The notes beneath the pieces were generated by a model. That model was not told the origin of the DNA and ran no database searches. It saw only the letters and a list, made by a program, of their open reading frames with translations. This document shows positions 4,417-23,899 of a DNA stretch of 26,459 nucleotides, piece after piece. Source of the stretch: an uncultured Bacteriovoracaceae bacterium (lineage in GTDB: Bacteria; Bdellovibrionota; Bacteriovoracia; Bacteriovoracales; Bacteriovoracaceae); the NCBI GenBank assembly GCA_964012805.1, contig CAXGUD010000047.1, positions 1 to 26,459 of the forward strand. The letters are read 5' to 3'. The first letter of the stretch is position 1, and every line of letters begins with the position of its first letter. Made by a program: the position numbers and the translations under genes.

Positions 4417-4510
4417 ATTCTCAATTTTAGAGACGACTGTTTTCAATCGTGTGTGGCGCAAAACTTCCTCCACAAATTTTAACTTACTCCATTGAATCAA
4501 ATATCTAGCT

Positions 4511-7306: not shown

Positions 7307-10300
7307 GCAATCTATTATGGCCATGTCTTGGCTTGTCGTTTGCAAGTCCCCAGGTACACAATAAATGGAATTATTCCACCTTAACCCTGCCTCAAAGAAC
7401 TTGGTCCTGTCATTAACCTGATTGGCCCTGGTATCACCATCTAAAAAACGCCTGACATTTTTTTCACTATCTTCATGCCCGGGAACTTTTAAATTTGATA
7501 ATGCGATACCTTTAGCGACCTTATTGGAGGCACATGCATTCAATTGACAGGCAAGTTGAATAACAACATCTGAACTTTTAATAAAACCAGTCATTTCATC
7601 AAAATATCCATCGGGCAGATTCTTTAAAGCTGAGGATACATAGCGGTTAAAAAAGATAGAAACATTGGTATAGTCAGGAAGATTACACTTAAGGGTTGTG
7701 GAATCATAATGACCAGAACAACAAACGTCTGGAGAAACTGTACTGTCTTTAACTTTTGTACCTAGAGGAAGGCAACAAGAGATTTTATCAGGGGAAAAAA
7801 TGGTTTTAAGTGAACTTGAAAAATTATTTGGATCATCTGCACCAAAGTATCTTTTATCGCTGGAATCCTTGTACTCAGCGTCCGTTGTTGCGGTTTGAAT
7901 AAAGTCTCCAATAGAAAAAGTATTTCCATCTACACTTTGATCAGTTGGGCTTACTTTACATTGGATATCAGTCTCATCCATGCTGGATACAGACACTTGA
8001 GGTATTCCTAAGAGCTCCAGGGAACTAATCCACTTTAAAATAGTATTGGCCTCTGAATTACCGATACTTCTCGCCAAACATTTGGGGTCATCTATATCGG
8101 GAACATGGGCACAGTCAAATTGATTCTCAGAGCATGTTATGTAAGTACCGCTTGTTTCACATTTTTCCCAATTAATACATTTAAAAGCGGTCATTGGAAT
8201 TGTCTGAGTCTTATCAGGGCCAAATCTATGCCCTCCTCCGTTTTGATCCTGATTAAATTCTCTTACCCAATGGCCAGAGCAACATGTCTTCGAAGAAACA
8301 TCGTTAAGTGTTTTAAATTGATTTTTCAAATCTTCATGTAGCATACAGTTATCTGCACCAGTTGTATTACTGCATTTATCAGGGCTTGCTGTCTTAAGAA
8401 CTGGGTAAACGATAGGAGAGTCCTGCATATTTTTATAATAGCTTGAAATTCTAGAGTATCTTTTTGTATCTGCTAGAGAAATATGAACTCCAGGAATTTT
8501 CTCACTATCAAAATCTGGAATTTCACTATTTGTGATTGCATCTCCAGTCTGGTCGACAAGAGTTCCAATAGTTATTGTTTTCCCCGTTTCTCTACAACAT
8601 CTATTCCTGGTTAAATCATAAAGTGGACTTTTGATAGATTCACTTTGAGAGCAAATTAATTCTTCTTTCCAGAAGTTTATTTCATATTTATTCAGAAGAT
8701 TTGTATAGGTTGTATCATTTTCATCAATAAGGGCCATGGCATTACTTACAAGATTCGTTGGAGCACAATCCTGGTCGGTGTGGCAAACAGATCCTGGGGC
8801 CCTTAAACAACGGTTTTTTTGCAAAATTGGCTCGGTTATCTGTTGGGAGTCGTAATCGACTAGCAGATTGCTAACACCAATAATTTCTTCAATTTTGTTA
8901 ACCGCATTTGTTGGTATCGCCTGGGTTACAGCAAGATTAGTTAGATTTGTATCATTTAGATTTTTTCCTAAGTCTGATGTGGAATCGATTAAGTGTACAA
9001 AGTTTAATGTTTGATCATCTAAAATAGCACAGGAGTTGACCATCTCAGTTGTCATGGTGACTACATTAGGAGTCATTCCAATACCGTTAAATTGATCCCC
9101 TCTAAATTGGTTTGCAGGTATTGTAGAGTTTTGTTCTTTAACAGTTAAGGTGTTTGAGTGTGTCGGCTCTCTTCCTGGAAGACAGATAGAGGTAATATTA
9201 TTGTAACTTAAGTTTTCCTGAGCTGTGGGGTTGATTTCTTCTTCACCATAATACTTTAGGGGTCTTCCAATAAGCCTTGTTCCGATGCCAAATGTATTGG
9301 CATTACTCTGCCCATCCGTTGAGTTTACATTTTGAGTTTTTATCGATTTTCCATAACGGGCTATTTTGTTATTAAATTTCTTGATAGGGACACCGTCAAT
9401 AAAGCTTTGGCAATAATAGTTAGGATTGCATGCATGGAGGCCTAACTCTTTATTACCACTGTAACTGGTTGAAGAGTTGGTTAATTTATAATCCTTTTTA
9501 CAAGGAGCGCCTCTTCCTCTGTAAACACACCTTTTCATAGAACCACCTAGATTTCCTAAGATATTTTTAAGGATTTCCATGCTGGAGACTGAATTGGGCT
9601 TTTCCTCAGCATTTTGATCAAATTGAGGCCAATTTGTACGGATTTGTGAAATTGACTGGCAAGAGTATTCCCAGCCTAGTTGAGTTACACAATCGGCATC
9701 AGAAAAACAAGTATGATAATTTTGGCATTGGGCCCCATCGCTTTCAATATCTTGTTTTGCATTTGGTTCAGAACCACTTACATTAGAGGGTAAGGTTATG
9801 AGAAGCCTAAAGGAGCTTTCAGTGGTGAGGTCTCCAAAGTAAGCATTAATTGCTACAAATAGTTTATTAGATGTAGCTTTTATTCTTCTTTGATTTCCAA
9901 TTGAAAACCACCTGACACCGTCAAATGATCCGATGATTGACCCATAATCAAAACCATACCAGTCTCTTTGGTATCCATTGGCGAAAAGAAAATGTTGGGC
10001 CGCTAATCGGTTCTTTCTTTGTTGTTGTGGATCTGAAAGTGGCTTGTGACTCCAGGGAATCATTGTGGCTGGAACGAAGCAAGCCCTCCCAAATAAATGA
10101 TCATCTGCTCTTGCATGATCTGGGTTGGAGATAAATTTATTCGTATTAGTAGGGTGCGGCAGATAACCTCCACCTTTAAAGTCAAAATTATTTGGGAAGA
10201 GTCTTGAAATATTTGAATAGTATTCGTTTCCACAATTTAAACAAGATGAAAAAGAGCCTTGTTCTATCCATAAATCGTATGTTTGATTGAAGGTTACAGG

Positions 10301-12304
10301 AATCTCCATAGCTGGCTTAGAGCTTCCCGGAGCTACTGAATAAGACCCATAAATTTCATTAAAGCCTATATAGGACGAGATATTATTCGGTTTTAGTAGA
10401 TCACTATTTGTATATGAAAAGGCCTCACCTTCTTGAGTTGGAGTTTTTGAACTAATCTCTTTATGGTAAGATCCAGTGTTGTCAAAGTATCTGTGAGGTG
10501 TTCTTTTTGAACTTATGTAAAACCATTCAGGAGGATTAAGGGCAGGAACCTCTGGTTCCTGATAAACGCAAGCATAATCAACGATGTCCATTGAAGTATT
10601 AAAAACTTTTCTTAAACCACAGGTATCTCCACCGCATTGGCAAATTTGTCCAACTTTATTCAGTGCAGTTTGTTTAGCTAGAAGAATATTGGAGTTGGCA
10701 TTTATGTCAACAAAAAAAGTGATTTTTACTTTTTGAGTGTCATACACCTGGAGAGTCGTTCCAGAAAAAAGAACTTCTGCTGGAGATGTCGATTGAAGTG
10801 TCCAATCGAAGTTTTTAATTTTATTAATATCATTAACTTCAACCTTAATGGTTCTATTTACGTCAGCATAAGTGGGTATTTTAAAAGAGTTAGAAGCAGG
10901 AAAGTGGTCAGTAATCTTACCATCGTTTTGACCTTGGATATATACTTTGTAACATTTTGCTAAACTGTTATTTATCTTTTTGCAGCTTCCATCAATCTTA
11001 TAACGGATCTTTAACGTATCATCAGGGGCATTACTTTTCTTAACGTGAGAAAGATTTACAGTTACGGAATCTGTTTTTATATCGTCATTACCTGGACCAA
11101 TAGCGAAGCCGGTTTGAAGAGTCGTACCATTGGAAAATAATTTTTCTCCTGCATGTATAATTTCATGGATGCTATGATTTGAAAGAGTTCCAGTTCCTGA
11201 ATAGGTCGTAGAAAAGTTCCTGTCATCTTCCCCGGTTTTAAAATCAGGATAGCTTTCATTTGTCGATGCGTTTTCAAATTCGTAGGTACAAATACTCATT
11301 TCTCCATCGCTATCATCATCACCTGTAGAGTCTTGATCTAATGGAGTTATGCAGTCGTATAGCTCTTTAAGCATGATAAGTCTTTTTTCTCTTTCGTCGT
11401 AGGGGTCAAGAGTCGATCCTGTACCACCTCCATCGCCATAATCAACGGGGGTTTCTGTACAAACGTGATAATATTGGGGATAAAATTTATAATTACTTGA
11501 GTTGGCGATGATATCTTGAACTGATTGAAGGTAATCGGGTTCGCTTTCAAAGTTGCCAGCTTTCTTTTCTCCATCTTTGACACATGTTCCGCCTGAGCAA
11601 CAATCAAATCCAAGGCTTTGACAGTACATTGAATCACTACATGTTTTTGTTTGAGGGTTTTCTGCTGAGGAAACCTTGTTAACTTGAAGACTTAGGTGTT
11701 TGGTCCCTATAGCAGTTAATTTTACACCACTTGTATCAAAAAGATGAACTGTTTTCCCAAGAATAAATGACCCTTTGTAGTTCGAAGAAAATTCTTGAAG
11801 AGAATATGATTTCATTGTGTTGGTATAAACACCAGCACCGGTTTTGCAAAAATTGGAGTTTTCTGAGGATGGGGTGACTTTAAAAAAGTAATACCATTCT
11901 CTTGTATTATTGGAAAAGTTTAAAAATGATTGTGGATAAGCAGCAAGAATAAGAGCCCTTTCAAGACCATTAATAGGATTGTTACCTGAAACGTCAAAGT
12001 GGACTGCCATACACGTCATGGCATTCGAACTTTTAAGAATATAATCGTGTACGTCTTGCCCTCTCATATAAAAACCATCAAGAAGATTATCTCGAAGAAT
12101 TAATCTTGTTGCAGAAATGTTGCTTCCTTCTTGGAAATAAGTTTGAGTTTGGGTTCCATACTGTGGCTTACCGACAGGCTGTTTTTTTGCGAAGTATTTT
12201 GTTTTTCTGAGGTCTCTGGGTTCTTGAACCATGCAAGACATGAGACCTAAGAAAAGGAAGCTTTGAAGAAAAATAAGAACACACTTTCGTGCTTTTTCGG
12301 CCAA
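7301..12304 (-). CDS. Very large cysteine-rich lipoprotein (1667 aa), probable surface/adhesin-like protein
   Basis: TTG start preceded by a strong SD (TAAGGAG). The N-terminus MAEKARKCVLIFLQSFLFLGLMSC is a lipoprotein-type signal. I count 56 Cys, with repeated CCSG and CxxDxDC modules, in S/T/N/D-rich beta-type sequence. Confidence 0.85.
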   Translation of the reverse strand: MAEKARKCVLIFLQSFLFLGLMSCMVQEPRDLRKTKYFAKKQPVGKPQYGTQTQTYFQEGSNISATRLILRDNLLDGFYMRGQDVHDYILKSSNAMTCMAVHFDVSGNNPINGLERALILAAYPQSFLNFSNNTREWYYFFKVTPSSENSNFCKTGAGVYTNTMKSYSLQEFSSNYKGSFILGKTVHLFDTSGVKLTAIGTKHLSLQVNKVSSAENPQTKTCSDSMYCQSLGFDCCSGGTCVKDGEKKAGNFESEPDYLQSVQDIIANSSNYKFYPQYYHVCTETPVDYGDGGGTGSTLDPYDEREKRLIMLKELYDCITPLDQDSTGDDDSDGEMSICTYEFENASTNESYPDFKTGEDDRNFSTTYSGTGTLSNHSIHEIIHAGEKLFSNGTTLQTGFAIGPGNDDIKTDSVTVNLSHVKKSNAPDDTLKIRYKIDGSCKKINNSLAKCYKVYIQGQNDGKITDHFPASNSFKIPTYADVNRTIKVEVNDINKIKNFDWTLQSTSPAEVLFSGTTLQVYDTQKVKITFFVDINANSNILLAKQTALNKVGQICQCGGDTCGLRKVFNTSMDIVDYACVYQEPEVPALNPPEWFYISSKRTPHRYFDNTGSYHKEISSKTPTQEGEAFSYTNSDLLKPNNISSYIGFNEIYGSYSVAPGSSKPAMEIPVTFNQTYDLWIEQGSFSSCLNCGNEYYSNISRLFPNNFDFKGGGYLPHPTNTNKFISNPDHARADDHLFGRACFVPATMIPWSHKPLSDPQQQRKNRLAAQHFLFANGYQRDWYGFDYGSIIGSFDGVRWFSIGNQRRIKATSNKLFVAINAYFGDLTTESSFRLLITLPSNVSGSEPNAKQDIESDGAQCQNYHTCFSDADCVTQLGWEYSCQSISQIRTNWPQFDQNAEEKPNSVSSMEILKNILGNLGGSMKRCVYRGRGAPCKKDYKLTNSSTSYSGNKELGLHACNPNYYCQSFIDGVPIKKFNNKIARYGKSIKTQNVNSTDGQSNANTFGIGTRLIGRPLKYYGEEEINPTAQENLSYNNITSICLPGREPTHSNTLTVKEQNSTIPANQFRGDQFNGIGMTPNVVTMTTEMVNSCAILDDQTLNFVHLIDSTSDLGKNLNDTNLTNLAVTQAIPTNAVNKIEEIIGVSNLLVDYDSQQITEPILQKNRCLRAPGSVCHTDQDCAPTNLVSNAMALIDENDTTYTNLLNKYEINFWKEELICSQSESIKSPLYDLTRNRCCRETGKTITIGTLVDQTGDAITNSEIPDFDSEKIPGVHISLADTKRYSRISSYYKNMQDSPIVYPVLKTASPDKCSNTTGADNCMLHEDLKNQFKTLNDVSSKTCCSGHWVREFNQDQNGGGHRFGPDKTQTIPMTAFKCINWEKCETSGTYITCSENQFDCAHVPDIDDPKCLARSIGNSEANTILKWISSLELLGIPQVSVSSMDETDIQCKVSPTDQSVDGNTFSIGDFIQTATTDAEYKDSSDKRYFGADDPNNFSSSLKTIFSPDKISCCLPLGTKVKDSTVSPDVCCSGHYDSTTLKCNLPDYTNVSIFFNRYVSSALKNLPDGYFDEMTGFIKSSDVVIQLACQLNACASNKVAKGIALSNLKVPGHEDSEKNVRRFLDGDTRANQVNDRTKFFEAGLRWNNSIYCVPGDLQTTSQDMAIIDCL

Positions 12305-12619: not shown

Positions 12620-14188
12620 ATGACCAATAAAATCTCACTTACTTTATCTTACTCAGAGGATGTTGAAGCTGCTCTTAACAAAAAGTGCCCTAAATGGGTC
12701 GATTATAGGGTTTTGTCAAAATCTTTGGACGCGAGAGGTGCTAATCGGGGAAAGGCACCAAAATATCATTATATTGTTGAGTGGATTAAGGAAGGTGAAG
12801 CGTTTAGTTCCTATGAAGAGACTTTTCCTAATTTAGGTCCTTTTGAAAACCCACCCATTATCATAGGAGCAGGACCCGGCGGCCTCTTTTGTGCTTTAAG
12901 GCTCGCTGAATATGGGATACCTTCTTTGATTTTTGAAAGAGGGGAAGCCGCTCATAACAGAATGAAAAAGATTGCAAGATTTTGGCGTTATGGTGAGTTT
13001 GATAGGGAAAACAATGTATGTTACGGCGAGGGCGGAGCTGGTCTATTTAGTGATGGTAAATTAATTACAAGAATAAAATCTCCTTTTGTAAAATACGTTA
13101 TGAAGCGTTTTGTAACCTTTGGAGCTCCTAAAGAAACAGCCTATATTTCAAATCCTCATTTGGGTTCAAATAAAATTAGAAACCTCATTTCTAAACTAAC
13201 GGATTATTTAAAAGAGAAAAAGTGCAAAATTTTTTATAATTCAAAAGTAGAAAAAATACTTGTCGATAAAATGGGAAAAATAGAGGGTGTAGAGCTTTCT
13301 AATGGAAAACGTTTCTATTCTTCTCACGTTGTCTTAGCTACCGGTCATTCACCTCAAGATATGTTCTCTCACCTCAATGATTTGGGGGTAAAGATGAAGC
13401 CTAAAGACTTCGCCGTAGGCGTAAGGATTGAACACCCAAGAAAACTCATTGACCATATTCAATTAGGAAAGTTTGCTGAGGATAAAAACTTAGGCTCGGC
13501 CCGATACAGACTTAGTTATCATGATTCAAACACTGAAAAGGGAACTTATAGTTTTTGTATGTGTCCTGGTGGCTATGTTCTTTCTTCTGGAACTGAAGAA
13601 GATGGAATTGTTGTTAATGGTATGAGTAATTATGCTAGAAATTCTCGATGGTCTAACTCTGCATTAGTTGTTTCAGTTAAAGCTGGTAAGGATTTTAGCA
13701 CCTCAAAAAGTCCACTTGAGGGACTGCACTTTCAACGAGAGATTGAAAAGAAAGCTTTTTCTTTTTCTAAAGAAAAAGCATCGGGAAAAGAATTGCCAGC
13801 ACAAAGATTAAAAGACTTTTTAGATCATAAGCTTAATCCCAATAAGCTTTCTAAGACCTCTACTCCATCTGGGCTATTCCCTTTAGCTATGAATCAAGTC
13901 CTCCCAAGCTTTATTGTGGAACACCTTCATGAGTCTTTTAAGTCTTTTGAAAAATCTCTGGGAGGTTTTTGCTTTGATGATGCTCTTCTAATAGCTCCCG
14001 AAACGAGGACAAGTTCACCTGTTACAATTGAAAGGGATAGAGAAACGTTAGAATCTCCCTCCCATGAAGGACTCTATCCTTGTGGCGAAGGTGCAGGGCA
14101 TGCAGGTGGTATTACCTCAGCGGCTGTTGATGGGGTCAAAATAGCCATGAGTTTGATCAAAAAAGAAACAGGTTTTGAAGCTAAATAG
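12620..14188 (+). CDS. Uncharacterised NAD(P)/FAD-dependent oxidoreductase (COG2509-type)
   Basis: Rossmann motif IIGAGPGG plus GEGGAGLFSDGKL, VGVRIEHP, FCMCPGG, ETRTSSP and GLYPCGEGAGHAGGITSAAVDG. ATG 12620 chosen; the track uses TTG 12593. Confidence 0.88.
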   Translation: MTNKISLTLSYSEDVEAALNKKCPKWVDYRVLSKSLDARGANRGKAPKYHYIVEWIKEGEAFSSYEETFPNLGPFENPPIIIGAGPGGLFCALRLAEYGIPSLIFERGEAAHNRMKKIARFWRYGEFDRENNVCYGEGGAGLFSDGKLITRIKSPFVKYVMKRFVTFGAPKETAYISNPHLGSNKIRNLISKLTDYLKEKKCKIFYNSKVEKILVDKMGKIEGVELSNGKRFYSSHVVLATGHSPQDMFSHLNDLGVKMKPKDFAVGVRIEHPRKLIDHIQLGKFAEDKNLGSARYRLSYHDSNTEKGTYSFCMCPGGYVLSSGTEEDGIVVNGMSNYARNSRWSNSALVVSVKAGKDFSTSKSPLEGLHFQREIEKKAFSFSKEKASGKELPAQRLKDFLDHKLNPNKLSKTSTPSGLFPLAMNQVLPSFIVEHLHESFKSFEKSLGGFCFDDALLIAPETRTSSPVTIERDRETLESPSHEGLYPCGEGAGHAGGITSAAVDGVKIAMSLIKKETGFEAK

Positions 14189-14200
14189 GTTTATTGAATC

Positions 14201-14491
14201 TTAATGAAAGATTTTTTTATTCTGCAGGTCCCAAAGTATCTTTTCCAAGATCTTTTTTTTATCATAAGGATCATTTTCTAATTTCTTTGATAAGGTTGTA
14301 AGGAGATTGTAGAGAGATTCTCCTTGGCCGTCTTCAATTTCTTCACAAGCTCTTTTATAAAGGTGGTCCAATATAATTTTAAAAGAGTACTTTCTTAGCT
14401 CTTTGTTATTATTAAACAGAATCTTGTCATTTTCCTCTGTCGAAATTTTTTTAGGAAAAGGGATAATATTTTGGAGCTGGTCTGTTTTCAT
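14201..14491 (-). CDS. Small hypothetical protein (96 aa)
   Basis: ATG-started ORF filling the gap between the FAD enzyme and the kinase; helical, charged composition with an N-terminal NIIPFP motif; no family recognised. Confidence 0.55.
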   Translation of the reverse strand: MKTDQLQNIIPFPKKISTEENDKILFNNNKELRKYSFKIILDHLYKRACEEIEDGQGESLYNLLTTLSKKLENDPYDKKKILEKILWDLQNKKIFH

Positions 14492-14651
14492 TTACACATT
14501 CTGGTATCAAATCACCCTTATGGCAATCAGAATTTTTTGTTGTTAAAAAGAAAACCTGAGAGTGTTAGTCTTTTAATAGCGATGAGTAATTTCTGGCCAA
14601 TGGTGTTCTTTGGCGAGAAAATAAAAAAAAATTATTTCGGGGATGATTTAT

Positions 14652-15287
14652 ATGAACACTGAAAAGAAAAAAAGAAAAAAGAGGGATAAGGATGGAAACT
14701 ACTTATTTGGAGTCTGTGGAGGTAGTTGTTCTGGTAAGTCTACATTTGTAGCAGCATTGGCAAAGGTTTTAGGAGAAGAAAACTGTTCTCTTTTTTCTCA
14801 AGATAATTTTTATTACGAGAACTTTGACAAGGTGCGCTTCGAATACCCCGAGTCCATAGATAACGATAAAATGAGGTTTTCTCTTTACGAACTTAAAATG
14901 GGACTTATGGTTGAGCTGCCGGTATTTGATGTTGCGACAAGATCGCTCATGCCTTTCATGGAAGACTTAGAATCAAAAAAAATTCTTATTTTAGAGGGGA
15001 GCTTTCTTTTGCATTGGGAAGAAATTCGAGGTGCCCTTGATGAAAGCGTATTTTTAGATTTTCCAACAGAGGAAAGGCTTCAAAGAAGAATTAAGCGTGA
15101 TACGATTGAAAGAGGTTTTCCAAAGGAGCAAGTGGAAAAAGAGTTTAATGAAAGTGCTGAAAAAATTCATCAGGATTTAATAATCCCTTCAAAAAATTTT
15201 GCTACGCATGTTGTGAATGATGAAGAATCTTTTTCTAAACTTGTTAATGACCTTGGAGAAAAGTTTAAAGGAATTATAGAATCATAG
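14652..15287 (+). CDS. udk: Uridine/cytidine kinase family protein (divergent base pocket)
   Basis: P-loop GVCGGSCSGKST, QDNFY (catalytic Asp), ILILEG and RLQRRIKRDTIERG. GGGGA SD 8 nt before ATG 14652 (alternative start 14643). Confidence 0.8.
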   Translation: MNTEKKKRKKRDKDGNYLFGVCGGSCSGKSTFVAALAKVLGEENCSLFSQDNFYYENFDKVRFEYPESIDNDKMRFSLYELKMGLMVELPVFDVATRSLMPFMEDLESKKILILEGSFLLHWEEIRGALDESVFLDFPTEERLQRRIKRDTIERGFPKEQVEKEFNESAEKIHQDLIIPSKNFATHVVNDEESFSKLVNDLGEKFKGIIES

Positions 15288-15412
15288 ATTTTTCTTAAAA
15301 CGTTATAAAAAGATTTCAAAATAATTTCCTGAGGAAAGTCAATTTTTGTTTCCATCTTGAAGAGAATAACTAAATTGATAATTTTGATACCTCGCTAACT
15401 CAAATAAAAGTT

Positions 15413-15441
15413 TTGACACCCCCATTTAAAATCATTAAGGT
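15413..15441 (+). promoter_or_regulatory. sigma70-type promoter of the pyrimidine catabolism operon
   Basis: Perfect TTGACA (15413-15418), 17-nt spacer, then TAAGGT (15436-15441), which keeps the T, A and final T of the -10 element. Confidence 0.55.
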
Positions 15442-15486
15442 TTTTGGTCCAAATTTAATTTTAGGATGCCAAAGGAGGACCTTGTT

Positions 15487-16977
15487 GTGAGTGGCTTTTT
15501 AAAAAATTATGTAAACGGAGCATTTGTAGAATCAAAAGCGAAGGAAAAGTTAGATATTATTAATCCTGCTACTCTAGAAGTATTGGGACAGACTCCTCTT
15601 GGTACGAGAGAAGACGTGGATGAAGCTGTTAAAGCGGCTAAGGAAGCTTTTAAGACTTGGAGCAAAGTTCCTGTTGTCGATAGAGTTCAACCTCTTTTTA
15701 AACTTAAAATTCTTCTTGATGAAAACGTCGATGAGATTGCTACTCTCATCGTCAAAGAACACGGCAAGACATTTAAAGAAGCGAAGGGTGATATCCTTCG
15801 TGGTATTCAAATGGTTGAAGTGGCCACCGGCATGCCCACTATTATGCAAGGTGAAAATTTAGATAATATAGCGCGAGATATTGACTGCCATGTGACCAGA
15901 AGACCTTTAGGCGTTTTTGGCGGAATAACACCTTTTAACTTTCCTTCAATGGTTCCTTTTTGGTTTTGGCCTTTTGCTATTGCTTCAGGAAATACTTATG
16001 TTTTAAAGCCTTCAGAAAGGGTGCCTTTAACACAGATGAAGATTTTTGAACTTATTCAACAAATTGGTTTACCTAAAGGTGTCCTTAACATGGTTCACGG
16101 AGGAAAGGATGTTGTTAACGGACTTCTCGACCATGAAGATATAAAGGGTATAAACTTTGTTGGCTCTACACCTGTGGCCAAGTATGTTTACCAAAAAGGC
16201 TCTCATAATGGAAAAAGAGTTCAAGCTCTAGGTGGAGCTAAAAATTATATTGTTATGTTACCGGATGCCCCTATTGAGCAATCTGTAGCAGCTATGGTTG
16301 ACTCTTGTCTCGGTTGTGCAGGAGAAAGATGTCTTGCTGGTTCAGTTCTTGTCGGTGTTGGTGAAGCCTACGACAGATTGAAAGAACAGGTTCTTAAAGA
16401 AGTCGGCCAAGTTGTTGTTGGAGATGGCCTTGATGTAAAAACAACGCTTGGTCCAGTCATTAGCGCCGAAGCTAAGTCAAGGATTGAAAAAGATATTGAG
16501 GCAGCTTTAAGTGAAGGGGCTGAACTACTTGTCGATGGAAGAAATCCTAAAACTAAAGAGAAAGGTTATTTTTTAGCACCAACAGTTTTAGATAAAGTGA
16601 AGCCAGGGACGACAATGGCCCAAAAAGAAATTTTTGGACCAGTTATTGGCCTCATGCAAGTCGGGACACTGGATGAAGCGATTGAAATCCTTAATTCTTC
16701 AAATTATGCCAATACAACGTCTATTTTTACTTCAAATGGAGGAGCCGCCAGAAAGTTTGTCGCTGAGGTAGCACCATCAATGGTTGGAGTTAACTTAGGC
16801 GTTCCAGCTCCTATGGCCTTTTTTAGTTTTGGTGGGTCAAAAGACTCCTTTTTTGGGGATGTAAAGGTTCATGGGAAAAGCTCTGTAGAATTTTTTACAG
16901 AAAAGCATACGACGATGACTCGTTGGTATGTTGAAGGAATGAATGATGCTGTCTCTCCAGTATGGAAAAGTGAGTAA
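15487..16977 (+). CDS. mmsA: CoA-acylating (methyl)malonate-semialdehyde dehydrogenase
   Basis: ITPFNFPSMVP, LKPSERVP, FVGSTPVA, KRVQALGGAKN, GCAGERCLA (catalytic Cys), EIFGPV, VGVNLGVPAPMAFFSFGGSKDSFFGD. An AAGGAGG SD favours GTG 15487 over ATG 15466. Confidence 0.95.
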   Translation: MSGFLKNYVNGAFVESKAKEKLDIINPATLEVLGQTPLGTREDVDEAVKAAKEAFKTWSKVPVVDRVQPLFKLKILLDENVDEIATLIVKEHGKTFKEAKGDILRGIQMVEVATGMPTIMQGENLDNIARDIDCHVTRRPLGVFGGITPFNFPSMVPFWFWPFAIASGNTYVLKPSERVPLTQMKIFELIQQIGLPKGVLNMVHGGKDVVNGLLDHEDIKGINFVGSTPVAKYVYQKGSHNGKRVQALGGAKNYIVMLPDAPIEQSVAAMVDSCLGCAGERCLAGSVLVGVGEAYDRLKEQVLKEVGQVVVGDGLDVKTTLGPVISAEAKSRIEKDIEAALSEGAELLVDGRNPKTKEKGYFLAPTVLDKVKPGTTMAQKEIFGPVIGLMQVGTLDEAIEILNSSNYANTTSIFTSNGGAARKFVAEVAPSMVGVNLGVPAPMAFFSFGGSKDSFFGDVKVHGKSSVEFFTEKHTTMTRWYVEGMNDAVSPVWKSE

Positions 16978-17054
16978 TTTCTAAAGACGTGTGAGTGAGA
17001 GAAAAAGAAAGTACAAAATTAAAAAAATAAAAAGTGAAAGTTAAGGAGAAAAGA

Positions 17055-17933
17055 ATGTCAGAAAATAATAAAAGGATTGTTAAATCAGCAGTTATTCAAA
17101 TGGCCAATAAGGTTCCAACGGAAGCCTCTTGTGAAGAACATAGGAAGGGAATGTTGGACGCCCATATTCCTCTTATTGAAGAAGCTGGTAAAAAAGGTGT
17201 TCAAATTCTTTGTTTTCAAGAGGTCTTTACTGGACCGTACTTCTGTCCTTCTCAAGATTCAAAATGGTATGGGTTAGCCGAAAGAATTCCTGAAGGCCCA
17301 ACAACTCAAAAGATGATGGAAATGGCCAAAAAACACAAAATGGTCATTATTGTTCCTATCTATGAAGAAGAAATGCCTGGTGTTTACTATAATACTGCAG
17401 CCGTTATTGATGCTGATGGAACTTACCTTGGTAAGTATAGAAAGAACCATATCCCTCAGGTTGCTGGCTTTTGGGAAAAATTCTTTTTCAAACCAGGAAA
17501 CACAAACTACCCAGTTTTTAAAACTAAGTATGCAACCGTTGGTGTTTATATTTGTTATGACCGCCACTTCCCAGATGGAGCAAGATGTCTTGGCTTAAGC
17601 GGAGCTGAAATTGTTTTTAACCCATCTGCTACTGTTGCAGGTTTAAGTGAATACTTATGGAAACTAGAGCAGCCTGCTCACGCAGTTGCTAATGGTTACT
17701 ATATTGCTGCCATCAACAGAGTTGGAACTGAAACTCCATGGAATATTGGTGAGTTTTATGGGCAAAGTTATTTTTGTAATCCAAGAGGACAAATTATCGC
17801 TGAAGCGAGTAGAGACAAAGATGAACTTCTCGTCGCTGACCTCGATATGGACATGATTAAAGAGGTAAGAGATCTTTGGCAATTCTATAGAGATAGAAGG
17901 CCTGAGACCTACACTCAGTTGACGAATCTCTAA
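17055..17933 (+). CDS. Beta-ureidopropionase (N-carbamoyl-beta-alanine amidohydrolase), nitrilase/CN-hydrolase superfamily
   Basis: E-K-C triad in CFQEVF / YRKNHIP / ICYDRHFP, plus FNPSATVAGLSEYLW, AINRVGTE and WQFYRDRRPETY. Operon context fits. TAAGGAG SD before ATG 17055. Confidence 0.88.
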   Translation: MSENNKRIVKSAVIQMANKVPTEASCEEHRKGMLDAHIPLIEEAGKKGVQILCFQEVFTGPYFCPSQDSKWYGLAERIPEGPTTQKMMEMAKKHKMVIIVPIYEEEMPGVYYNTAAVIDADGTYLGKYRKNHIPQVAGFWEKFFFKPGNTNYPVFKTKYATVGVYICYDRHFPDGARCLGLSGAEIVFNPSATVAGLSEYLWKLEQPAHAVANGYYIAAINRVGTETPWNIGEFYGQSYFCNPRGQIIAEASRDKDELLVADLDMDMIKEVRDLWQFYRDRRPETYTQLTNL

Positions 17934-17956
17934 TCAACATTTTTTTGGAGTTTTAA

Positions 17957-19249
17957 ATGGAAAACGAAGAAATAATGGGCCTTAGAAAGGCTCATCTTTA
18001 TCCCACAAAAATTCCCTATTACAAAGACCCCATTCAGCTTGTAAGAGCAAGTGGGTCTTATGTATGGGATAATCAAGGAAAGCAATACCTTGATGTAATA
18101 GGTGGAATCGTCTCGATTTCAGTAGGACACAACCATCCTCAAATTAAGGAGAAGATGAAGGCGATGATTGCTGAAGATGCTATTCAGCACACGACCTTTC
18201 TTTATCTTTCTCAATATATGGCAGAGTTAGGTAAGAAAATCTCTGATGTTGCACCTGATGGCCTAAACAAGTGCTACTTCGTAAACTCTGGTTCTGAAGC
18301 TAATGAAATGGCCATTATGAGTGCCAGGGTTGCTACCGGTGAGCAAATGGTTGTTTCTCTTCGTCATGGCTACCATGGTGGAACGAATGTTCCACTTGCT
18401 CTTTGTGGACATGGGACATGGAAGTATCCAGCCCAACCTCAAGCTTCTGTCGTTCACGCTATGGCACCTTATTGTTACCGTTGTCCTTTCAACAGTAAAA
18501 ATGGCTGCCACATGGAGTGTGCTGAAGATGTGAAAAATGTTATCGAAACGACAACCCACGGGAAAATTGCAGCTTTTATTGCTGAGCCTGTTATGGGTGT
18601 TGGGGGCTTTATTGATCCTCCAGTGCAATACCATAAAAGAGTTCATGAAATTGTGAAAAGCTATGGTGGTCTCTATATATCTGATGAAGTTCAAGCAGGT
18701 GTTGGAAGAACAGGGAAGCACTTTTTTGCTATTGAAGAGTCTGGTGTAACTCCTGACCTTATAACGATGGCCAAAGGAATTGGTAACGGAGCTCCTGTTG
18801 GTGCTGTGATTGCTAAAGATGAGGTTGCTGAAGCGATGAAAGGAAAACTCCACTTTAATACTTTTGGAGGAGACCCCTATCAAGCGATGCAGGCCTCTGA
18901 GGTTGTTGATATTGTTTTAAATGATAACCTTATTGAAAATTCAAAAGTCATGGGGAACTATTTAAAAGAAGCTTTTAAAGATCTTCAAAAAGATTTTCCT
19001 GTGATTGGTGACGTGAGAGGTCGAGGCCTCATGCTAGGTCTTGAGCTTGTCAAAGATAGAAAGACAAAAGAGCCGGCGGCCAACGAAGCGGCTCTTTTAA
19101 TGGAGCTTTCAAAAGGCGAAGGACTCCTCATTGGTAAAGGTGGCCTTTACGGAAACGTCATTAGAATCGCTCCATCTCTAGGTATCTCAAGAAGTGAAGC
19201 CGATGAACTAGTGACAAAACTTAAAGCTTCTTTTCAAAAGCTTTCTTAA
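17957..19249 (+). CDS. Class III PLP aminotransferase, AGXT2-like; probable beta-alanine/beta-aminoisobutyrate:pyruvate transaminase
   Basis: NSGSEANE, GYHG, SDEVQAGVGRTG, TMAKGIGNG (PLP Lys), HFNTFGG and DVRGRGLMLG; lies between the ureidopropionase and the NCS1 gene. Confidence 0.88.
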   Translation: MENEEIMGLRKAHLYPTKIPYYKDPIQLVRASGSYVWDNQGKQYLDVIGGIVSISVGHNHPQIKEKMKAMIAEDAIQHTTFLYLSQYMAELGKKISDVAPDGLNKCYFVNSGSEANEMAIMSARVATGEQMVVSLRHGYHGGTNVPLALCGHGTWKYPAQPQASVVHAMAPYCYRCPFNSKNGCHMECAEDVKNVIETTTHGKIAAFIAEPVMGVGGFIDPPVQYHKRVHEIVKSYGGLYISDEVQAGVGRTGKHFFAIEESGVTPDLITMAKGIGNGAPVGAVIAKDEVAEAMKGKLHFNTFGGDPYQAMQASEVVDIVLNDNLIENSKVMGNYLKEAFKDLQKDFPVIGDVRGRGLMLGLELVKDRKTKEPAANEAALLMELSKGEGLLIGKGGLYGNVIRIAPSLGISRSEADELVTKLKASFQKLS

Positions 19250-19286
19250 ACTTTAGACCCCCTAGCGGTCCATAAAGGAGGGTGAT

Positions 19287-20753
19287 GTGAAACTCATCAA
19301 TGATGATTTGGCACCAGTTACAGAGAAGGGAAAAACCTGGAGTACTCTCAATTATTTTTCTCTTTGGGTAGGGATGGCCGTTTGTATCCCCTCCTATATG
19401 ATCGCTTCAAGCCTTATAGCTGCTGGAATGAGTTTGTGGCAGGCCATGGGCTGTGTTTTTTTAGGGAATATGATTGTTTTAGTTCCCATGGTTTTAAACG
19501 GAATGGCGGGAACAAAGTATGGTGTTCCCTATCCCGTTTTTGCGAGGGCGAGCTTTGGCGTTTTAGGCTCTAATGTCCCTGCCCTTTTAAGAGCAGTCGT
19601 CGCTTGTGGTTGGTTTGGGATTCAATCATGGATCGGTGGAACTGCGGTCAAAGCTGTTATAAGCCAGGTTTGGCCAGCTTTTTTAGAGCTTCCTCAAGTG
19701 ATGCCCGCTTTTATGGGAGTTGATACACCGTCTTTTATTAGTTTTCTTATTTTTTGGGGCTTCAACGTTTACCTCATTTTAAAAGGTGTTGAGTCCATTA
19801 AGTTTTTAGAAACGGCTGCAGCACCGATTCTTTTGATTGCAGGCGTTGTTCTTTTAGGGTGGGCCGTTTCCCAAACAGGTATTGAGCCTCTTTTAAATCA
19901 GCCATCAACTTTTAAAACAAGTGAAGAATTTTGGAATATTTTTATTCCAAGTCTTACGGGCATGGTCGGCTTTTGGGCCACCATGAGTTTGAATATTCCC
20001 GATTTTACTCGTTATGCTAAAGACCAAAAAAGCCAAATGATTGGTCAGGCCTTAGGTCTTCCAACGACGATGACTTTATTTGCTCTCATTGGTGTGATGG
20101 TGACAAAGGCAACACAAGTCCTTTACGGGACGGCCATTTGGGATCCAGTTCAAGTTATTCAGAAATTTGATAATCCTGCGATTCTTTTGATTTCTATGAT
20201 TATTATTAGTATTGCTACTTTATCAACCAACGTTGCTGCCAATGTTGTGGGCCCTGCTAACGATATTTCAAATGTTAATCCGGATAAAATTAATTTTAAA
20301 ACAGGTGGAATGATCACAGCTTTCCTAGGTATTTTTATGATGCCTTGGAAGTTGATTGCTGATCCTCAAGGATATGTTTTTACCTGGCTTATAGGTTACT
20401 CCTCCCTTCTTGGTCCTATAGGAGGAATTCTTTTAGTTGATTATTTCCTATTAAGAAAACAAAAATTAGTAGTAGAAGACCTTTACAAAAAGGATGGGGT
20501 CTATTGGTATTCAGGTGGTTTTAATACAAAAGCGCTCATGGCCTTTGTTTTAGGAGTACTTCCTAACGTGCCAGGTTTTTTAAAGCAAATTCAGGTTGTG
20601 AATGAAATTCCTGGGGTTTTTGAGACCATTTATAGTTACGCTTGGTTTGTTGGCCTACCCCTTGCTGGTCTTGTCTATTACGGGCTAATGATGGCCAAAG
20701 AAAGTGAAGAAATTTCCGAAATCGATTCGGGAGAGGAGTTCCAAAATGTCTGA
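19287..20753 (+). CDS. NCS1 nucleobase:cation symporter (uracil/dihydropyrimidine/allantoin permease type)
   Basis: LWVGMAVCIPSY, GTKYGVPYPVFARASFG, ACGWFGIQSW, FWATMSLNIPDFTRY, NVAANVV and MPWKL; about 12 TM segments; AAGGAGG SD before GTG. Confidence 0.95.
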   Translation: MKLINDDLAPVTEKGKTWSTLNYFSLWVGMAVCIPSYMIASSLIAAGMSLWQAMGCVFLGNMIVLVPMVLNGMAGTKYGVPYPVFARASFGVLGSNVPALLRAVVACGWFGIQSWIGGTAVKAVISQVWPAFLELPQVMPAFMGVDTPSFISFLIFWGFNVYLILKGVESIKFLETAAAPILLIAGVVLLGWAVSQTGIEPLLNQPSTFKTSEEFWNIFIPSLTGMVGFWATMSLNIPDFTRYAKDQKSQMIGQALGLPTTMTLFALIGVMVTKATQVLYGTAIWDPVQVIQKFDNPAILLISMIIISIATLSTNVAANVVGPANDISNVNPDKINFKTGGMITAFLGIFMMPWKLIADPQGYVFTWLIGYSSLLGPIGGILLVDYFLLRKQKLVVEDLYKKDGVYWYSGGFNTKALMAFVLGVLPNVPGFLKQIQVVNEIPGVFETIYSYAWFVGLPLAGLVYYGLMMAKESEEISEIDSGEEFQNV

Positions 20754-21825
20754 AAAATTAGAAGTTTATTCCAATGGTGTTCGTTTCGAAAACCCTTTCC
20801 TAGTGGGTTCTGGACCTCCATCAACAAATGGAAAAATTATTGCCCGTTCTTTTAAGGCGGGATGGGGTGGATCAGTCCTCAAAACTCTAAGTCTTGACCA
20901 TACCAAAGTGAGAAACATTGCTCCTCGCTATGGTAAACTTATGGATCACGGAAAATGTATTGGGTATACTAATAACGAGCTCATCACTGACCGTCCTCTT
21001 GATATTTGGCTTGATGAAATAAAGGCCCTAAAAAAAGAATTTCCAGATAAGGTTATTGTGGCCTCCATTATGGAAGAACCTATTCGAGAAAATTGGCAAA
21101 AACTCACTGAACTTGTTTGTAAAGCGGGAGCCGACCTTATTGAGCTAAATCTTTCTTGTCCTCATGGGATGCCTGAGCGAAAAATGGGTCAGGCCATGGG
21201 GCAAGACTGCAGTATGGTTCAGGAAGTGACTGGTTGGGTTAAAGATGTATCAACAGTTCCAGTTTGGGCAAAGATGACTCCAAATGTAATGGACATCACT
21301 CAACCTGCAGCAAGTGCTTATAAAGCTGGTGCTGATGGTATTACGGCCATCAATACAATTTTGAGTGTTGCTGGCGTTGACATGAAAAGCTTTAAGCCAA
21401 CCCCTAATGTTAAAGGTATTTCAGCTTTTGGTGGCTACTCTTACAAATCAGTTAAGCCAATCGGTCTTCGTATGGTAGCCGAACTTGCTATGGCCTTCCC
21501 AAAATCTATTATTAGTGGTGTTGGGGGGGTAACTGATGGCCATAGTGCAGCTGAATTTATGTGCATGGGGTCAACTACTCTTCAAGTTTGTACTGGAATT
21601 ATGCTAGACGGTTTCAAGATTGTTGATCAGCTAAAAGAAGAGTTAACTACTATTCTTGACGGTCATGGAATGGCCAACGTTTTAGAACTTAGAGGCAAAT
21701 CTCTAGAGTTCTTTGGAACGATGAAAGAAATGGCAGACCGAATGGAAGCCAGCAAGAAAAAGACGGCTCATACCAATGCATTTGAAGGAGACAATATCGT
21801 CAATGTCTCTAATGAACTCTGCTAG
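20746..21825 (+). CDS. preA: Dihydropyrimidine dehydrogenase FMN subunit (PreA/plant PYD1-like), lacking the C-terminal 4Fe-4S domain
   Basis: NPFLVGSGPPST, GWGGSVLKT, NELITDRP, NLSCPHGMPERKMG (catalytic Cys), WAKMTPN, AINT and QVCTG. ATG 20746 has a GAGGAG SD and overlaps the NCS1 stop (ATGTCTGA). No CxxCxxC motif is present. Confidence 0.9.
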   Translation: MSEKLEVYSNGVRFENPFLVGSGPPSTNGKIIARSFKAGWGGSVLKTLSLDHTKVRNIAPRYGKLMDHGKCIGYTNNELITDRPLDIWLDEIKALKKEFPDKVIVASIMEEPIRENWQKLTELVCKAGADLIELNLSCPHGMPERKMGQAMGQDCSMVQEVTGWVKDVSTVPVWAKMTPNVMDITQPAASAYKAGADGITAINTILSVAGVDMKSFKPTPNVKGISAFGGYSYKSVKPIGLRMVAELAMAFPKSIISGVGGVTDGHSAAEFMCMGSTTLQVCTGIMLDGFKIVDQLKEELTTILDGHGMANVLELRGKSLEFFGTMKEMADRMEASKKKTAHTNAFEGDNIVNVSNELC

Positions 21826-21851
21826 CCATTAAGCGTTTTATTTTTTATGAT

Positions 21852-21879
21852 AAGGGTCCTTAATAAGGGCCCTTTTTTT
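21852..21879 (+). terminator. Rho-independent terminator closing the pyrimidine operon
   Basis: AAGGGTCCTT-aat-AAGGGCCCTT stem (one G-U pair) running into a T7 tract, 26 nt after the preA stop. Confidence 0.85.
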
Positions 21880-21934
21880 GTAAAGTGACCCTTCCAATTT
21901 TATTAATATAAAAGAATAAAATAAGGATTTTTGA

Positions 21935-22252
21935 ATGAATTTATTGTCACTTGATGAGCTTTATGAAAAATCTAAAAACCTTAAAGAGGGTGAAGTCATT
22001 TTAGATGTTCGAGGACCCAGTGAGTTTGCTGAAGGTCATATTGAGGGAAGCCTCAATATACCTCATGATTCAGTAGTAGAGCATGTTGATAAGTTGAAGG
22101 AATATAAAAATATTTATATCCACTGTAAAATGGGTGGTAGAGCAAAAATGGCCTATTCCATGCTAGAAGAAAGTGGTATTAATAACATGGAAGTCTGTGT
22201 CGAAGCCGGTTTTCAAGGCTGGATAGAGAAAGGTTATCCTGTACATAAATAG
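21935..22252 (+). CDS. Single-domain rhodanese-like sulfurtransferase
   Basis: ILDVRGPSEFAEGHIEGSLNIP, active-site loop HCKMGGRA and GFQGWIEKGYPV; TAAGGA SD. Confidence 0.92.
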   Translation: MNLLSLDELYEKSKNLKEGEVILDVRGPSEFAEGHIEGSLNIPHDSVVEHVDKLKEYKNIYIHCKMGGRAKMAYSMLEESGINNMEVCVEAGFQGWIEKGYPVHK

Positions 22253-22269
22253 ACCTAAAGAATTAGTTC

Positions 22270-23076
22270 TTAGCGCTTAAACTTGAACTGCCTAAATTTA
22301 TTTTCTTTTGTAAGGGGTGTTGGTTTGAAGCCAACACAACTTTTTATATGCTTGGCTTTTTCATCAGGAATTCTTATAAACTCCTTAAAAGGCATAAAGG
22401 ATCCTTGCCTCCGATTCCTTTTAGAGTTGTAAAAGGCCAATTCAAAAGTGTAAGAACCTTTCATTTTCATGCCACCATTTAAACGCGTGAAAAAGCCAAT
22501 CTCTTCACTTTTTGAAGTGAGGGGATATTTTGCTCCTCTTTGGACTAAAATCCTTTTTGTTGAACCTGTCTTTCTTTCTTCAATGCTAACATCTGGAATT
22601 ATCTTATTGTGTTCAAAAGCTGGACAAGAGAACTTTTCAAATCGGGAGGAATGAGCAGCAGCACTGTAAAAAATAGAAAATCCCGTTTTTTTTATATCTC
22701 TGAAAAACTTTCCATTGGATGACTTTCTCCAGTTCTTTTGAACAAGAGGCAGAGTGATGTGTCCTAAGATAGTTTTATTTCCAGTCCTACTAATTTTGGA
22801 AACTTTAATAAGCCATGAGTCGACTTCTGTTTTTTTATTAATGTCTTTCAAATGCTCTTTAGAGAGAGAAGGTATATTTAATGAAACGAGAATTCCTTTA
22901 GAAATTTTATTCAAAGATTTTCCTCTACCCACTTTCCAATCGACTACCCTAACTCGATCAATAGTACCTTTAGGTAAATCAATCATAAAAGAGTGAGAGT
23001 TTAAGGGAGAATAGGTATAGTTTTCGGAACAACCTAAAAGTAAAAGAGGTATAAAAATATAAATCCAATTTCTCAT
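22270..23076 (-). CDS. Hypothetical basic lipoprotein (268 aa)
   Basis: MRNWIYIFIPLLLLGC is a canonical lipobox; K/R-rich mature region with one additional Cys pair. Confidence 0.8.
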   Translation of the reverse strand: MRNWIYIFIPLLLLGCSENYTYSPLNSHSFMIDLPKGTIDRVRVVDWKVGRGKSLNKISKGILVSLNIPSLSKEHLKDINKKTEVDSWLIKVSKISRTGNKTILGHITLPLVQKNWRKSSNGKFFRDIKKTGFSIFYSAAAHSSRFEKFSCPAFEHNKIIPDVSIEERKTGSTKRILVQRGAKYPLTSKSEEIGFFTRLNGGMKMKGSYTFELAFYNSKRNRRQGSFMPFKEFIRIPDEKAKHIKSCVGFKPTPLTKENKFRQFKFKR

Positions 23077-23145
23077 TCGATCCGTTTCGGAATTAAATTA
23101 TATTTTATTAAAACCTGATCTAATCGGTAGAGATTTTTAAAAATT

Positions 23146-23172
23146 TCAAAGTTTGTAAATGAAATTCGATAA
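23146..23172 (+). promoter_or_regulatory. sigma28-like promoter candidate, adjacent to an oppositely oriented ACCGATTA -10 element at 23121-23128
   Basis: TCAAAGTTT-gtaaatgaaa-TTCGATAA versus TAAAGTTT-N11-GCCGATAA, 40 nt upstream of ATG 23212. Confidence 0.4.
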
Positions 23173-23211
23173 GAAACTTGTGAAATATTTAGAAAAATTG
23201 AGCTTATTAAA

Positions 23212-23899
23212 ATGAATAATATTTTAATAATTCTGTTATTTTCATTTTTATGTTTGGAGAATTCTTATTCATCACAAAAAGAATTAGAAAGCTCTTTTGA
23301 CTTATCTCCCTTAAAAAATAATGAAAAAAAGAAAAGAAGACGACTTCTATTGTTACCGTTCTGCGGATGTAAATGGACCTCTACAAACTCACCTCTTGGC
23401 AAAAGAAACAGCAACTCTTTTGGAGAAACGATCACTCGAAATACCCTTTTTAAGTTTTCTTTTTGCTGGAGATAGAAGGGCATTGGATCCACAAAAAGTG
23501 CATAAAATAATGGTAAATGGCTTTAAAAAACTTAATTCCTTTGTGTATCTTGAGGAAGATACTGATTTAGATTATCTGAAACAATTTGGTGGCAATCCAA
23601 AGAAAGTAAAAAGCCATAATAAAAAGGATAAAATTTATGGTCAATCTCATCTATCTTTAATAACACCACCTAAGGATTTCTATTATGGAAAAAGTGGTAT
23701 TTATAGAGATTGTGAGCACTATCCAGAAAAGTCGAAAGACTTTAAGAATTGTAAAAGTGAGGGGTTTGACAATAAAGTGTGGATTGGAGAGGCAACTAAA
23801 AAAAACTTAAAAAAGGGTCTTATGAGGCGTTTACGCTATAATCCACTGTGGAAAACCATGCTTAAAGAAATTAAAAAACACCTTATAGCTACAGAATAA
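23212..23899 (+). pseudogene. Disrupted secreted alpha/beta-hydrolase-like gene (frameshift and apparent internal loss)
   Basis: A signal-peptide ORF from 23212 (MNNILIILLFSFLCLENSYS...SFDLSP) and the 23321-23899 ORF are in different frames, joined at A-runs around 23313-23340. The second ORF resembles an alpha/beta-hydrolase C-terminal half (PFLSFLFAGD...SHLSL...YYG...RLRYNP), but no GxSxG appears in either piece. Confidence 0.55.

Follow-up and report, generated by a model that had tools for sequence, protein, structure and literature searches.

A probable bacterial dihydropyrimidine dehydrogenase of the plant PYD1 type, without iron–sulfur domain or PreT partner, in a likely pyrimidine-breakdown operon

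Introduction

The first enzyme of plant pyrimidine catabolism, the dihydropyrimidine dehydrogenase (DPD) PYD1, has resisted assay in vitro, and papers of 2009, 2011 and 2023 left its electron partner unidentified. Arabidopsis PYD1 knockouts accumulate uracil, and PYD1 targeted to the cytosol is inactive (PMC3223058), which points to a plastid cofactor. One report called the partner unidentified and noted failed earlier attempts at assay (PMC2713857), the recombinant rice enzyme had no activity with NAD(P)H alone or in a class 1A assay (PMC9930899), and the plant role of the enzyme is also treated in PMC10415118. Here we analyze a 26,459-nucleotide stretch of DNA, the window, from an uncultured Bacteriovoracaceae bacterium (GenBank assembly GCA_964012805.1, contig CAXGUD010000047.1, positions 1 to 26,459, forward strand). 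It encodes a 359-residue reductase that is likely a dihydropyrimidine dehydrogenase with the architecture of PYD1.

In open-licence PubMed Central and bioRxiv texts, we found no description of iron–sulfur (Fe-S)-free bacterial members of this family or of the plant electron donor. A survey of 3419 bacterial enzymes demanded a 4Fe-4S domain (PMC7332683), and the short family was thus left out by construction. The main text of a superfamily phylogeny treats PydA/PreA solely as partners of PydX/PreT (PMC4016543), and its supplementary trees may hold short forms. Short reductases are automatically labelled 'NAD-dependent subunit PreA' by NCBI or dihydroorotate dehydrogenase (DHODH) by some sources, labels that hide a third or fourth enzyme architecture.

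Results

The reductase is an intact barrel enzyme without an Fe-S domain

The reductase gene is a complete open reading frame (ORF) with GGAGAGGAG upstream of its start. As a first-pass annotation of the window had claimed from the DNA letters, the product has the motifs of a flavin mononucleotide (FMN)/pyrimidine barrel and no CxxCxxCxxxC sequence, and its C-terminal residues are those given there. DHO_dh (residues 5–304) was the only Pfam family over cutoff, a Pfam scan for Fer4 came up empty, and no Fe-S, FAD or NAD(P)H domain was detected in the chain by Pfam, NCBIfam or a motif check. The single cysteine beyond residue 282 is the final residue. The NCBIfam PreA model scored over cutoff, yet it covered just model positions 4–331 of 422, and PyrD family models fell below cutoff (TIGR01037, 169 versus 270; NF005574, 165 versus 269). 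DNA contigs of runs X4 and X5, from two other studies, crossed the stop codon without gaps, so the protein end is not an assembly break. The chain begins at the barrel and carries no plastid transit peptide, as expected in a bacterium, which marks it as a bacterial family member and not a plant gene.

Among solved structures, pig DPD was the top match by sequence (E 5.7e-62), with class 1 DHODHs at 1e-26 or worse, and it also ranked first in a Foldseek search with the reductase model (template-modelling [TM] score 0.78). This AlphaFold model (predicted local distance difference test [pLDDT] score 81; predicted TM score 0.82) contained a TIM barrel and two less certain tail helices. Alignment placed K46, N76, N135, K176, N203 and T204 of the reductase on K574, N609, N668, K709, N736 and T737 of pig DPD, residues that we take to act toward cofactor and substrate. 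The two proteins share ELNLSCPHGM letter for letter, which places Cys138 on Cys671, the catalytic residue of pig DPD (PMC8097209); the Cys138 position did not vary among the 37 family members aligned. The reductase combines an FMN barrel with a DPD-type pyrimidine pocket and a catalytic cysteine. It is an intact enzyme of the plant PYD1 family, built as an FMN barrel, and its likely role is to reduce uracil and thymine in the opening step of pyrimidine breakdown.

The reductase groups with plant PYD1 and apart from PreA

First, the reductase was 46–49% identical to six plant or algal proteins and 39.5% identical, over 324 residues, to E. coli PreA. The green-lineage PYD1 set held Brassica, Oryza, Marchantia, Chlorella and others, with Arabidopsis not in the set. 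Among 120 mostly green-lineage matches, GSGPP occurred in 112, SCPHGMPER[KR]MG in 119 and GGYSYK in 15, and E. coli PreA had none of them.

Second, a hidden Markov model (HMM) built solely from 50 other bacterial tails recognized the tail of the reductase at 34.5 bits (E 5e-11) and those of 21 of 21 plant proteins at 68–87 bits (E 1.4e-21 or better), versus 4.1 bits (E 0.15) for E. coli PreA and 21.6 bits for the top Fe-S-bearing protein. The query tail has diverged, with FFGTM set against FTTH in most plants.

Third, we built trees on the barrel alone. In a 48-row tree (70 rows minus 22, with long branches among those dropped), the short bacterial forms and plants lay on one side of a branch with 100/100 support and PreA lay apart. 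Support for this large clade by the Shimodaira–Hasegawa (SH)-like approximate likelihood-ratio test was 94 in the 70-row tree, and its SH support in a 141-row FastTree was 96. The approximately unbiased (AU) test rejected trees joining the query subgroup to PreA (p 0.004) and trees in which the short bacterial forms made a clade excluding plants (p 0.003), and it did not reject the query subgroup as sister to plants (p-AU 0.054); the tested groups were chosen after the first tree had been inspected. Motifs, tail and phylogeny agree with the first-pass claims of a plant-like tail, of motifs nearer PYD1 than PreA and of a PYD1-type enzyme.

Within the 48-row tree, the plants (100/100) fell in a 98/97 group holding six bacterial rows. 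Four of these, when looked up, belonged to Phycisphaerales, Anatilimnocola or Chthoniobacterales clusters, with L115's own cluster lacking a taxon, and an Atlas look-up with the rice protein returned Planctomycetota-rich clusters on top. In these comparisons, the bacteria nearest plants are Planctomycetota and Verrucomicrobiota, and the query subgroup is an early, divergent branch not next to plants. The long stem of this subgroup and the post hoc choice of groups make its early placement less certain than the clade. The simplest reading would be a donor to the green lineage that resembled the Planctomycetota–Verrucomicrobiota–Chlamydiota (PVC) bacteria. As red algae, glaucophytes and cyanobacteria were not deliberately included in the trees, the direction and timing of such a transfer are inferred.

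Just outside the main short clade branched P0265 and P0316, Fe-S-free and highly divergent proteins whose tails end in a plant-like way.

Short reductases form a large bacterial family, and most short-form genomes sampled in the phylum lack a PreT-like domain

No CxxCxxCxxxC motif occurred in the 120 best homologs listed of 7028 found, and 117 of the 120 had 355–395 residues. Their source names included Myxococcota, Acidobacteriota (Pyrinomonadaceae), Planctomycetota and Verrucomicrobiota among others, and named carriers were Luteolibacter, Haloferula, Anatilimnocola, Plesiocystis pacifica and Halobacteriovorax marinus. Far from being a one-off, the reductase of the window belongs to a large bacterial family that spans several phyla. 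A search of 50% representatives gave chiefly fragments and frameshifted records.

Reductase matches occurred in 42 of 301 sampled genomes of the phylum of the window and fell into three architectures: 15 were Fe-S-bearing PreA with preT next door, 16 belonged to a family that we call f6, 9 were short forms and 2 were cut at contig ends. Genome counts here and below are purely descriptive, since related genomes are not independent.

PF14691, the N-terminal Fe-S domain of PreT and GltD, had no match in the genome of the window (G000; 100% complete, 130 contigs; control 9/14). E. coli PreT in tblastn gave nothing convincing in this genome, where matches were short Rossmann motifs or weak (21–27% identity), and PyrK was not found there. 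The first-pass claim that the window has no preT- or GltD-like gene thus extends to the whole genome. PF14691 was also absent from most short-form genomes (19 of 24, G000 included) and had unlinked matches in the other five; the 24 comprise the phylum sample plus added relatives, minus five duplicate handles, and all genome-wide preT counts cover genomes of this phylum. In the two of the five that were checked, G306 and G344, the best match lies second in a gene pair of PRK06222 type that we read as NfnAB-like; a weaker match in G344 sits 26 kb from the reductase gene. By contrast, canonical Fe-S-bearing PreA had an adjoining preT in 15 of 15 genomes.

Other architectures were seen in passing. 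Family f6 (L038, L040, L042, L043, L044, L049, L050, L051) is the third architecture, an Fe-S-tailed PreA without PF14691 over cutoff; long frames were present in 16 genomes, and Fe-S motifs were checked in 8. It resembles ferredoxin-dependent PydAc outside Clostridiales and has its own long branch in the tree. In the family of the window, G329:C60 and G332:C39 each have one frame of 838–843 residues that fuses a PreT domain to the barrel. In an archaeal genome (L019:6332-8819), two Fe-S-bearing PreA-like genes lie in tandem, and PF14691 had no match there.

A five-gene operon of probable pyrimidine breakdown ends with the reductase gene

The reductase is the last of five genes, after those for a semialdehyde dehydrogenase, a hydrolase, an aminotransferase and an NCS1 transporter (Table 1), and its ATG overlaps the NCS1 stop codon. 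The terminator that the first-pass annotation placed directly behind it is supported by a 10-pair hairpin and T run at 21852–21874, 27 nucleotides past the stop (z = -3.05; 1 of 200 shuffles equally good). Substrates of the hydrolase, aminotransferase and transporter are suggested by this context. A dihydropyrimidinase gene over cutoff lies outside the operon (G000:C25:29290-30732), and a class 2 PyrD over cutoff lies on contig C3 of the same genome.

Table 1. Features of the reductase gene and its operon in the window
Feature	Position	Strand	Basis or remark
CoA-acylating (methyl)malonate-semialdehyde dehydrogenase, opening the operon	15466..16977	+	TIGR01722 over cutoff
Carbon-nitrogen hydrolase, likely beta-ureidopropionase	17034..17933	+	Pfam CN_hydrolase; no NCBIfam model over cutoff
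Class III aminotransferase, likely beta-alanine aminotransferase	17957..19249	+	Pfam Aminotran_3; substrate from context
NCS1 nucleobase:cation symporter, likely uracil/thymine uptake	19287..20753	+	TIGR00800 over cutoff; substrate from context
Short (PYD1-type) dihydropyrimidine dehydrogenase, 359 aa	20746..21825	+	FMN TIM barrel and helical tail, no Fe-S domain; Pfam DHO_dh, pig DPD match, tree with plant PYD1
Active-site loop ELNLSCPHGMPERK	21142..21183	+	Cys138 codon 21157-21159, aligned to catalytic Cys671 of pig DPD
C-terminal tail (residues 310-359) that stands where PreA has its 2x[4Fe-4S] domain	21673..21822	+	Two predicted helices, 326-337 and 351-358, pLDDT 64-72; homologous to plant PYD1 tail
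Intrinsic-terminator-like hairpin and T run closing the operon	21852..21881	+	Fold and shuffle test

The same genes recur beside other short reductases. Over 96 loci (80 metagenomic, 16 genomic), neighbors included dihydropyrimidinase in 45, hydrolase in 45, NCS1 transporter in 39, aminotransferase in 35 and aldehyde dehydrogenase in 33, and 63 loci carried a dihydropyrimidinase or hydrolase gene. Just 37 of the 96 extended at least 2.5 kb on either side, and 28 of these 37 had a pathway gene. Genome-wide, dihydropyrimidinase was over threshold in 13 of 18 genome handles with the reductase gene versus 0 of 20 family genomes without it; in G159/G304, the reductase gene is cut by a contig end. 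A role of the reductase in pyrimidine breakdown is very probable. Operon and co-occurrence suggest that uracil and thymine would be its substrates in vivo, and orthology together with gene context argues for the direction of reduction.

Several relatives (L012, L014-L016) have a dihydropyrimidinase gene between the first two operon genes, a position at which the window (16977–17034) has none. The unlinked dihydropyrimidinase of G000 is just 43–51% identical to these operon-borne copies, which suggests displacement of the operon gene. At L059:4140-10458 (G299), the operon order matches that of the window and the neighbors are 66–86% identical; the reductase, only 47% identical, belongs to another subgroup, which suggests gene replacement in place.

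Close relatives are labelled Halobacteriovoraceae (98%) and Bacteriovoracales (91%), and the sequencing runs that contain the DNA are marine metagenomes. Elsewhere in the window are minus-strand ORFs for a cysteine-rich, lipoprotein-like protein of 1667 residues (7301–12304) and a coiled-coil-like protein of 1043 residues (1369–4500), and a repeat scan of positions 14000–23500 returned only chance-like matches.

A shared ferredoxin is one candidate electron donor

In the mechanism that we propose, the NCS1 transporter would import the pyrimidine base, which would then receive a hydride from reduced FMN and a proton from Cys138. The unlinked dihydropyrimidinase and then the hydrolase, aminotransferase and semialdehyde dehydrogenase would release CO2 and nitrogen and yield an acyl-CoA. 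A soluble ferredoxin would re-reduce FMN in two one-electron steps, docking at the site of the lost Fe-S chain. This least-supported step is modelled on ferredoxin-dependent glutamate synthase, which works without GltD and has no GltD-like subunit (PMC8097209). PydAc, which is driven by ferredoxin (PMC7332683), offers a further parallel.

No redox partner recurred in a Pfam scan of 150 of 151 neighbor representatives from the 80 metagenomic loci, and 18 redox queries had no match at E 1e-3 among 5565 six-frame ORFs of the 96 loci, a small library in which the enzyme at L116 was missed. This lack of a dedicated partner recurring near the gene fits a shared carrier and would make the donor unlinked. 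Candidate carriers in G000 are a 108-residue [2Fe-2S] ferredoxin, a 61-residue 2x[4Fe-4S] ferredoxin and a long-chain flavodoxin, and the genome also encodes the alpha subunit of a 2-oxoacid:ferredoxin oxidoreductase. By analogy with the systems above, the chances that the donor is a free housekeeping or shared ferredoxin encoded elsewhere seem about even to us. We hold the full account, an Fe-S-free uracil/thymine reductase of the PYD1 family that works without PreT and is fed by such a ferredoxin, in the same evenly balanced way.

Several observations weigh against this account. PydAc retains Fe-S clusters and is inactive once they are lost (PMC7332683), so the step from ferredoxin to a bare barrel is an extrapolation. 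The [2Fe-2S] ferredoxin occurred in 12 of 18 genome handles with the reductase gene versus 18 of 20 without it, flavodoxin occurred in 2 of 18, and POR_N was unmatched in 7 of 18. The G000 [2Fe-2S] ferredoxin is weakly acidic, and its orthologs have net charges of +1 to -8. Three genomes with the reductase gene (G112, G128 and G308) had no dihydropyrimidinase over threshold. Short reductases also occur without pathway neighbors (L053, L054, L017, L183 and L184, the last two counting here) and may serve some function other than full catabolism. RNA support is confined to scattered short contigs, of which one, of 151 bases, lies inside the reductase gene; they are too sparse to speak to expression level or co-transcription. 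Activity and donor binding of the bacterial members would follow from comparison with studied enzymes. The donor profile used single-protein or single-family queries, which leaves other ferredoxins as possible donors, and the 2 of 18 count makes flavodoxin unlikely as a general donor.

Some redox genes near the reductase were single or rare: an FMN reductase at L110, a nitronate monooxygenase at L129, a divergently oriented pyruvate:ferredoxin oxidoreductase adjoining the reductase at one Phycisphaerae-type locus (L116:2157-7215), and an SdhB-like Fe-S gene at L133, to which sequences at L121 and L130 are similar; these three loci belong to the PVC-like branch. The pyruvate:ferredoxin oxidoreductase and SdhB-like synteny is probably chance. 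Among fusion candidates, the PreT-fused proteins P0122 and P0123 were set aside as having Fe-S tails and lying outside the short clade, and plant records fused to unrelated domains were read as gene-model artefacts.

Other electron routes and activities are less probable

A different source of electrons for the same uracil reductase (free reduced flavin, a flavin reductase encoded elsewhere, or a dedicated partner that has gone unrecognised and that the tail may bind) seems to us unlikely but worth serious attention. Conservation of the tail from bacteria to plants suits a binding or dimer role, none of the ferredoxin candidates tracks the reductase gene, and at L110 an NADPH-dependent FMN reductase gene lies ~2.4 kb upstream. 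That neighbor is a single case, however; a dedicated partner would be expected in the operon at times, and none recurs in the 150 neighbor representatives. Fusion of a short-clade barrel to a bacterial redox domain was likewise not seen among 120 longer homologs listed.

Still less likely is direct binding of NAD(P)H by the barrel, with ping-pong chemistry at one FMN, as in tRNA dihydrouridine synthases, and no need of a partner. The reductase has a sub-cutoff Dus profile match (E 0.025), its gene at times stands alone, and the neighborhoods offered no partner anywhere. The plant data argue otherwise: the rice enzyme, though truncated and tagged, showed no activity in either direction with NADH or NADPH (PMC9930899), and the inactivity of cytosol-sent Arabidopsis PYD1 (PMC3223058) and the failure of earlier plant-enzyme assays (PMC2713857) point the same way.

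We consider it quite improbable that the reductase works in reverse or on another substrate, as a dihydrouracil oxidase like the fungal class 1 enzymes or as a DHODH. Class 1A DHODH and fungal dihydrouracil oxidase are indeed stand-alone FMN barrels (PMC9585004), and DHODH is the name that some sources give to short reductases. Against this stand the PyrD models far under cutoff beside a PreA model over it and the class 2 PyrD already present in G000. The operon consumes dihydrouracil, so its oxidation would oppose the pathway, and the plant knockouts accumulate uracil (PMC3223058) while the rice enzyme was negative in the class 1A assay (PMC9930899).

That an unlinked GltD-like subunit and a free ferredoxin rebuild the PreT–PreA chain is very improbable. 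The unlinked PF14691 matches in 5 of 24 short-form genomes and the free 2x[4Fe-4S] ferredoxin of G000 would allow it, but G000 and 18 further genomes lack PF14691 matches, the top matches in G306 and G344 belong to the NfnAB-like pair, and canonical PreA keeps preT adjacent. Recent truncation or misassembly of an ordinary preA, for which only the automatic PreA label speaks, has a negligible chance and was ruled out by the motif-free homologs of uniform length, the conserved tail, the independent contigs across the stop and the AU rejection of a PreA grouping.

Discussion

Of the outcomes that would have undone the first-pass proposal, neither PreA grouping or truncation, nor a cognate preT elsewhere in G000, nor a role solely as DHODH was found, with PyrD separately encoded. 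Its suggestion of a tractable model for the plant enzyme holds in part: family and architecture are the same, but the reductase is a divergent member and PVC bacteria lie nearest plants, so Planctomycetota and Verrucomicrobiota members should be better models. Cultured PVC or myxobacterial members would also be better experimental systems than G000.

The existence of a bacterial family with the same architecture turns the plant donor question into a problem of genetics, and a growth screen on uracil nitrogen in the named carriers could find the donor. A question open since at least 2009 becomes testable in this way without itself being answered, and the trees suggest that the plant gene came from PVC-like bacteria. 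The broadest proposal would be that a multi-phylum, Fe-S-free bacterial family gave rise to plant PYD1 through a Planctomycetota/Verrucomicrobiota-type donor and that bacterial and plastid enzymes both run on ferredoxin feeding FMN directly, with no on-board cluster; we hold it tentatively and lean slightly against it.

Among known systems, class 1A/1B DHODHs and fungal dihydrouracil oxidase (PMC9585004) are stand-alone FMN barrels of similar fold (TM about 0.72–0.75); they are a far weaker sequence match, and the G000 reductase has no PyrK and a catabolic gene context. Pig DPD (PDB 1GT8/1GTH/7LJT) is the nearest solved relative by sequence and fold, with its catalytic cysteine and Asn/Thr/Lys pocket positions aligned; it is a 1025-residue fusion with FAD, NADPH and four Fe-S clusters, whereas the G000 protein is the barrel alone. 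PydAc of Clostridium chromiireducens (PMC7332683) likewise has no FAD/NAD(P)H module, lies in a pyd cluster and sets the precedent for a ferredoxin donor, but it keeps ferredoxin domains and depends on their clusters, and the G000 chain has no such domains. The NAD-dependent heterotetramer PreA–PreT of E. coli has a homologous barrel, and the G000 protein passes the NCBIfam PreA cutoff; it differs in lacking the 2x[4Fe-4S] tail and preT and in belonging to a separate clade. Plant and green-algal PYD1/DPYD, a plastid enzyme (PMC2713857, PMC3223058, PMC9930899), differs from the G000 protein, which is bacterial, encoded in an operon, free of a transit peptide and diverged in its tail. The two are nevertheless alike in consisting of the barrel only, with the same loop motifs and tail, no Fe-S, FAD or NAD(P)H domain and no known partner, and plant PYD1 and the bacterial short forms make up one clade with 100/100 support.

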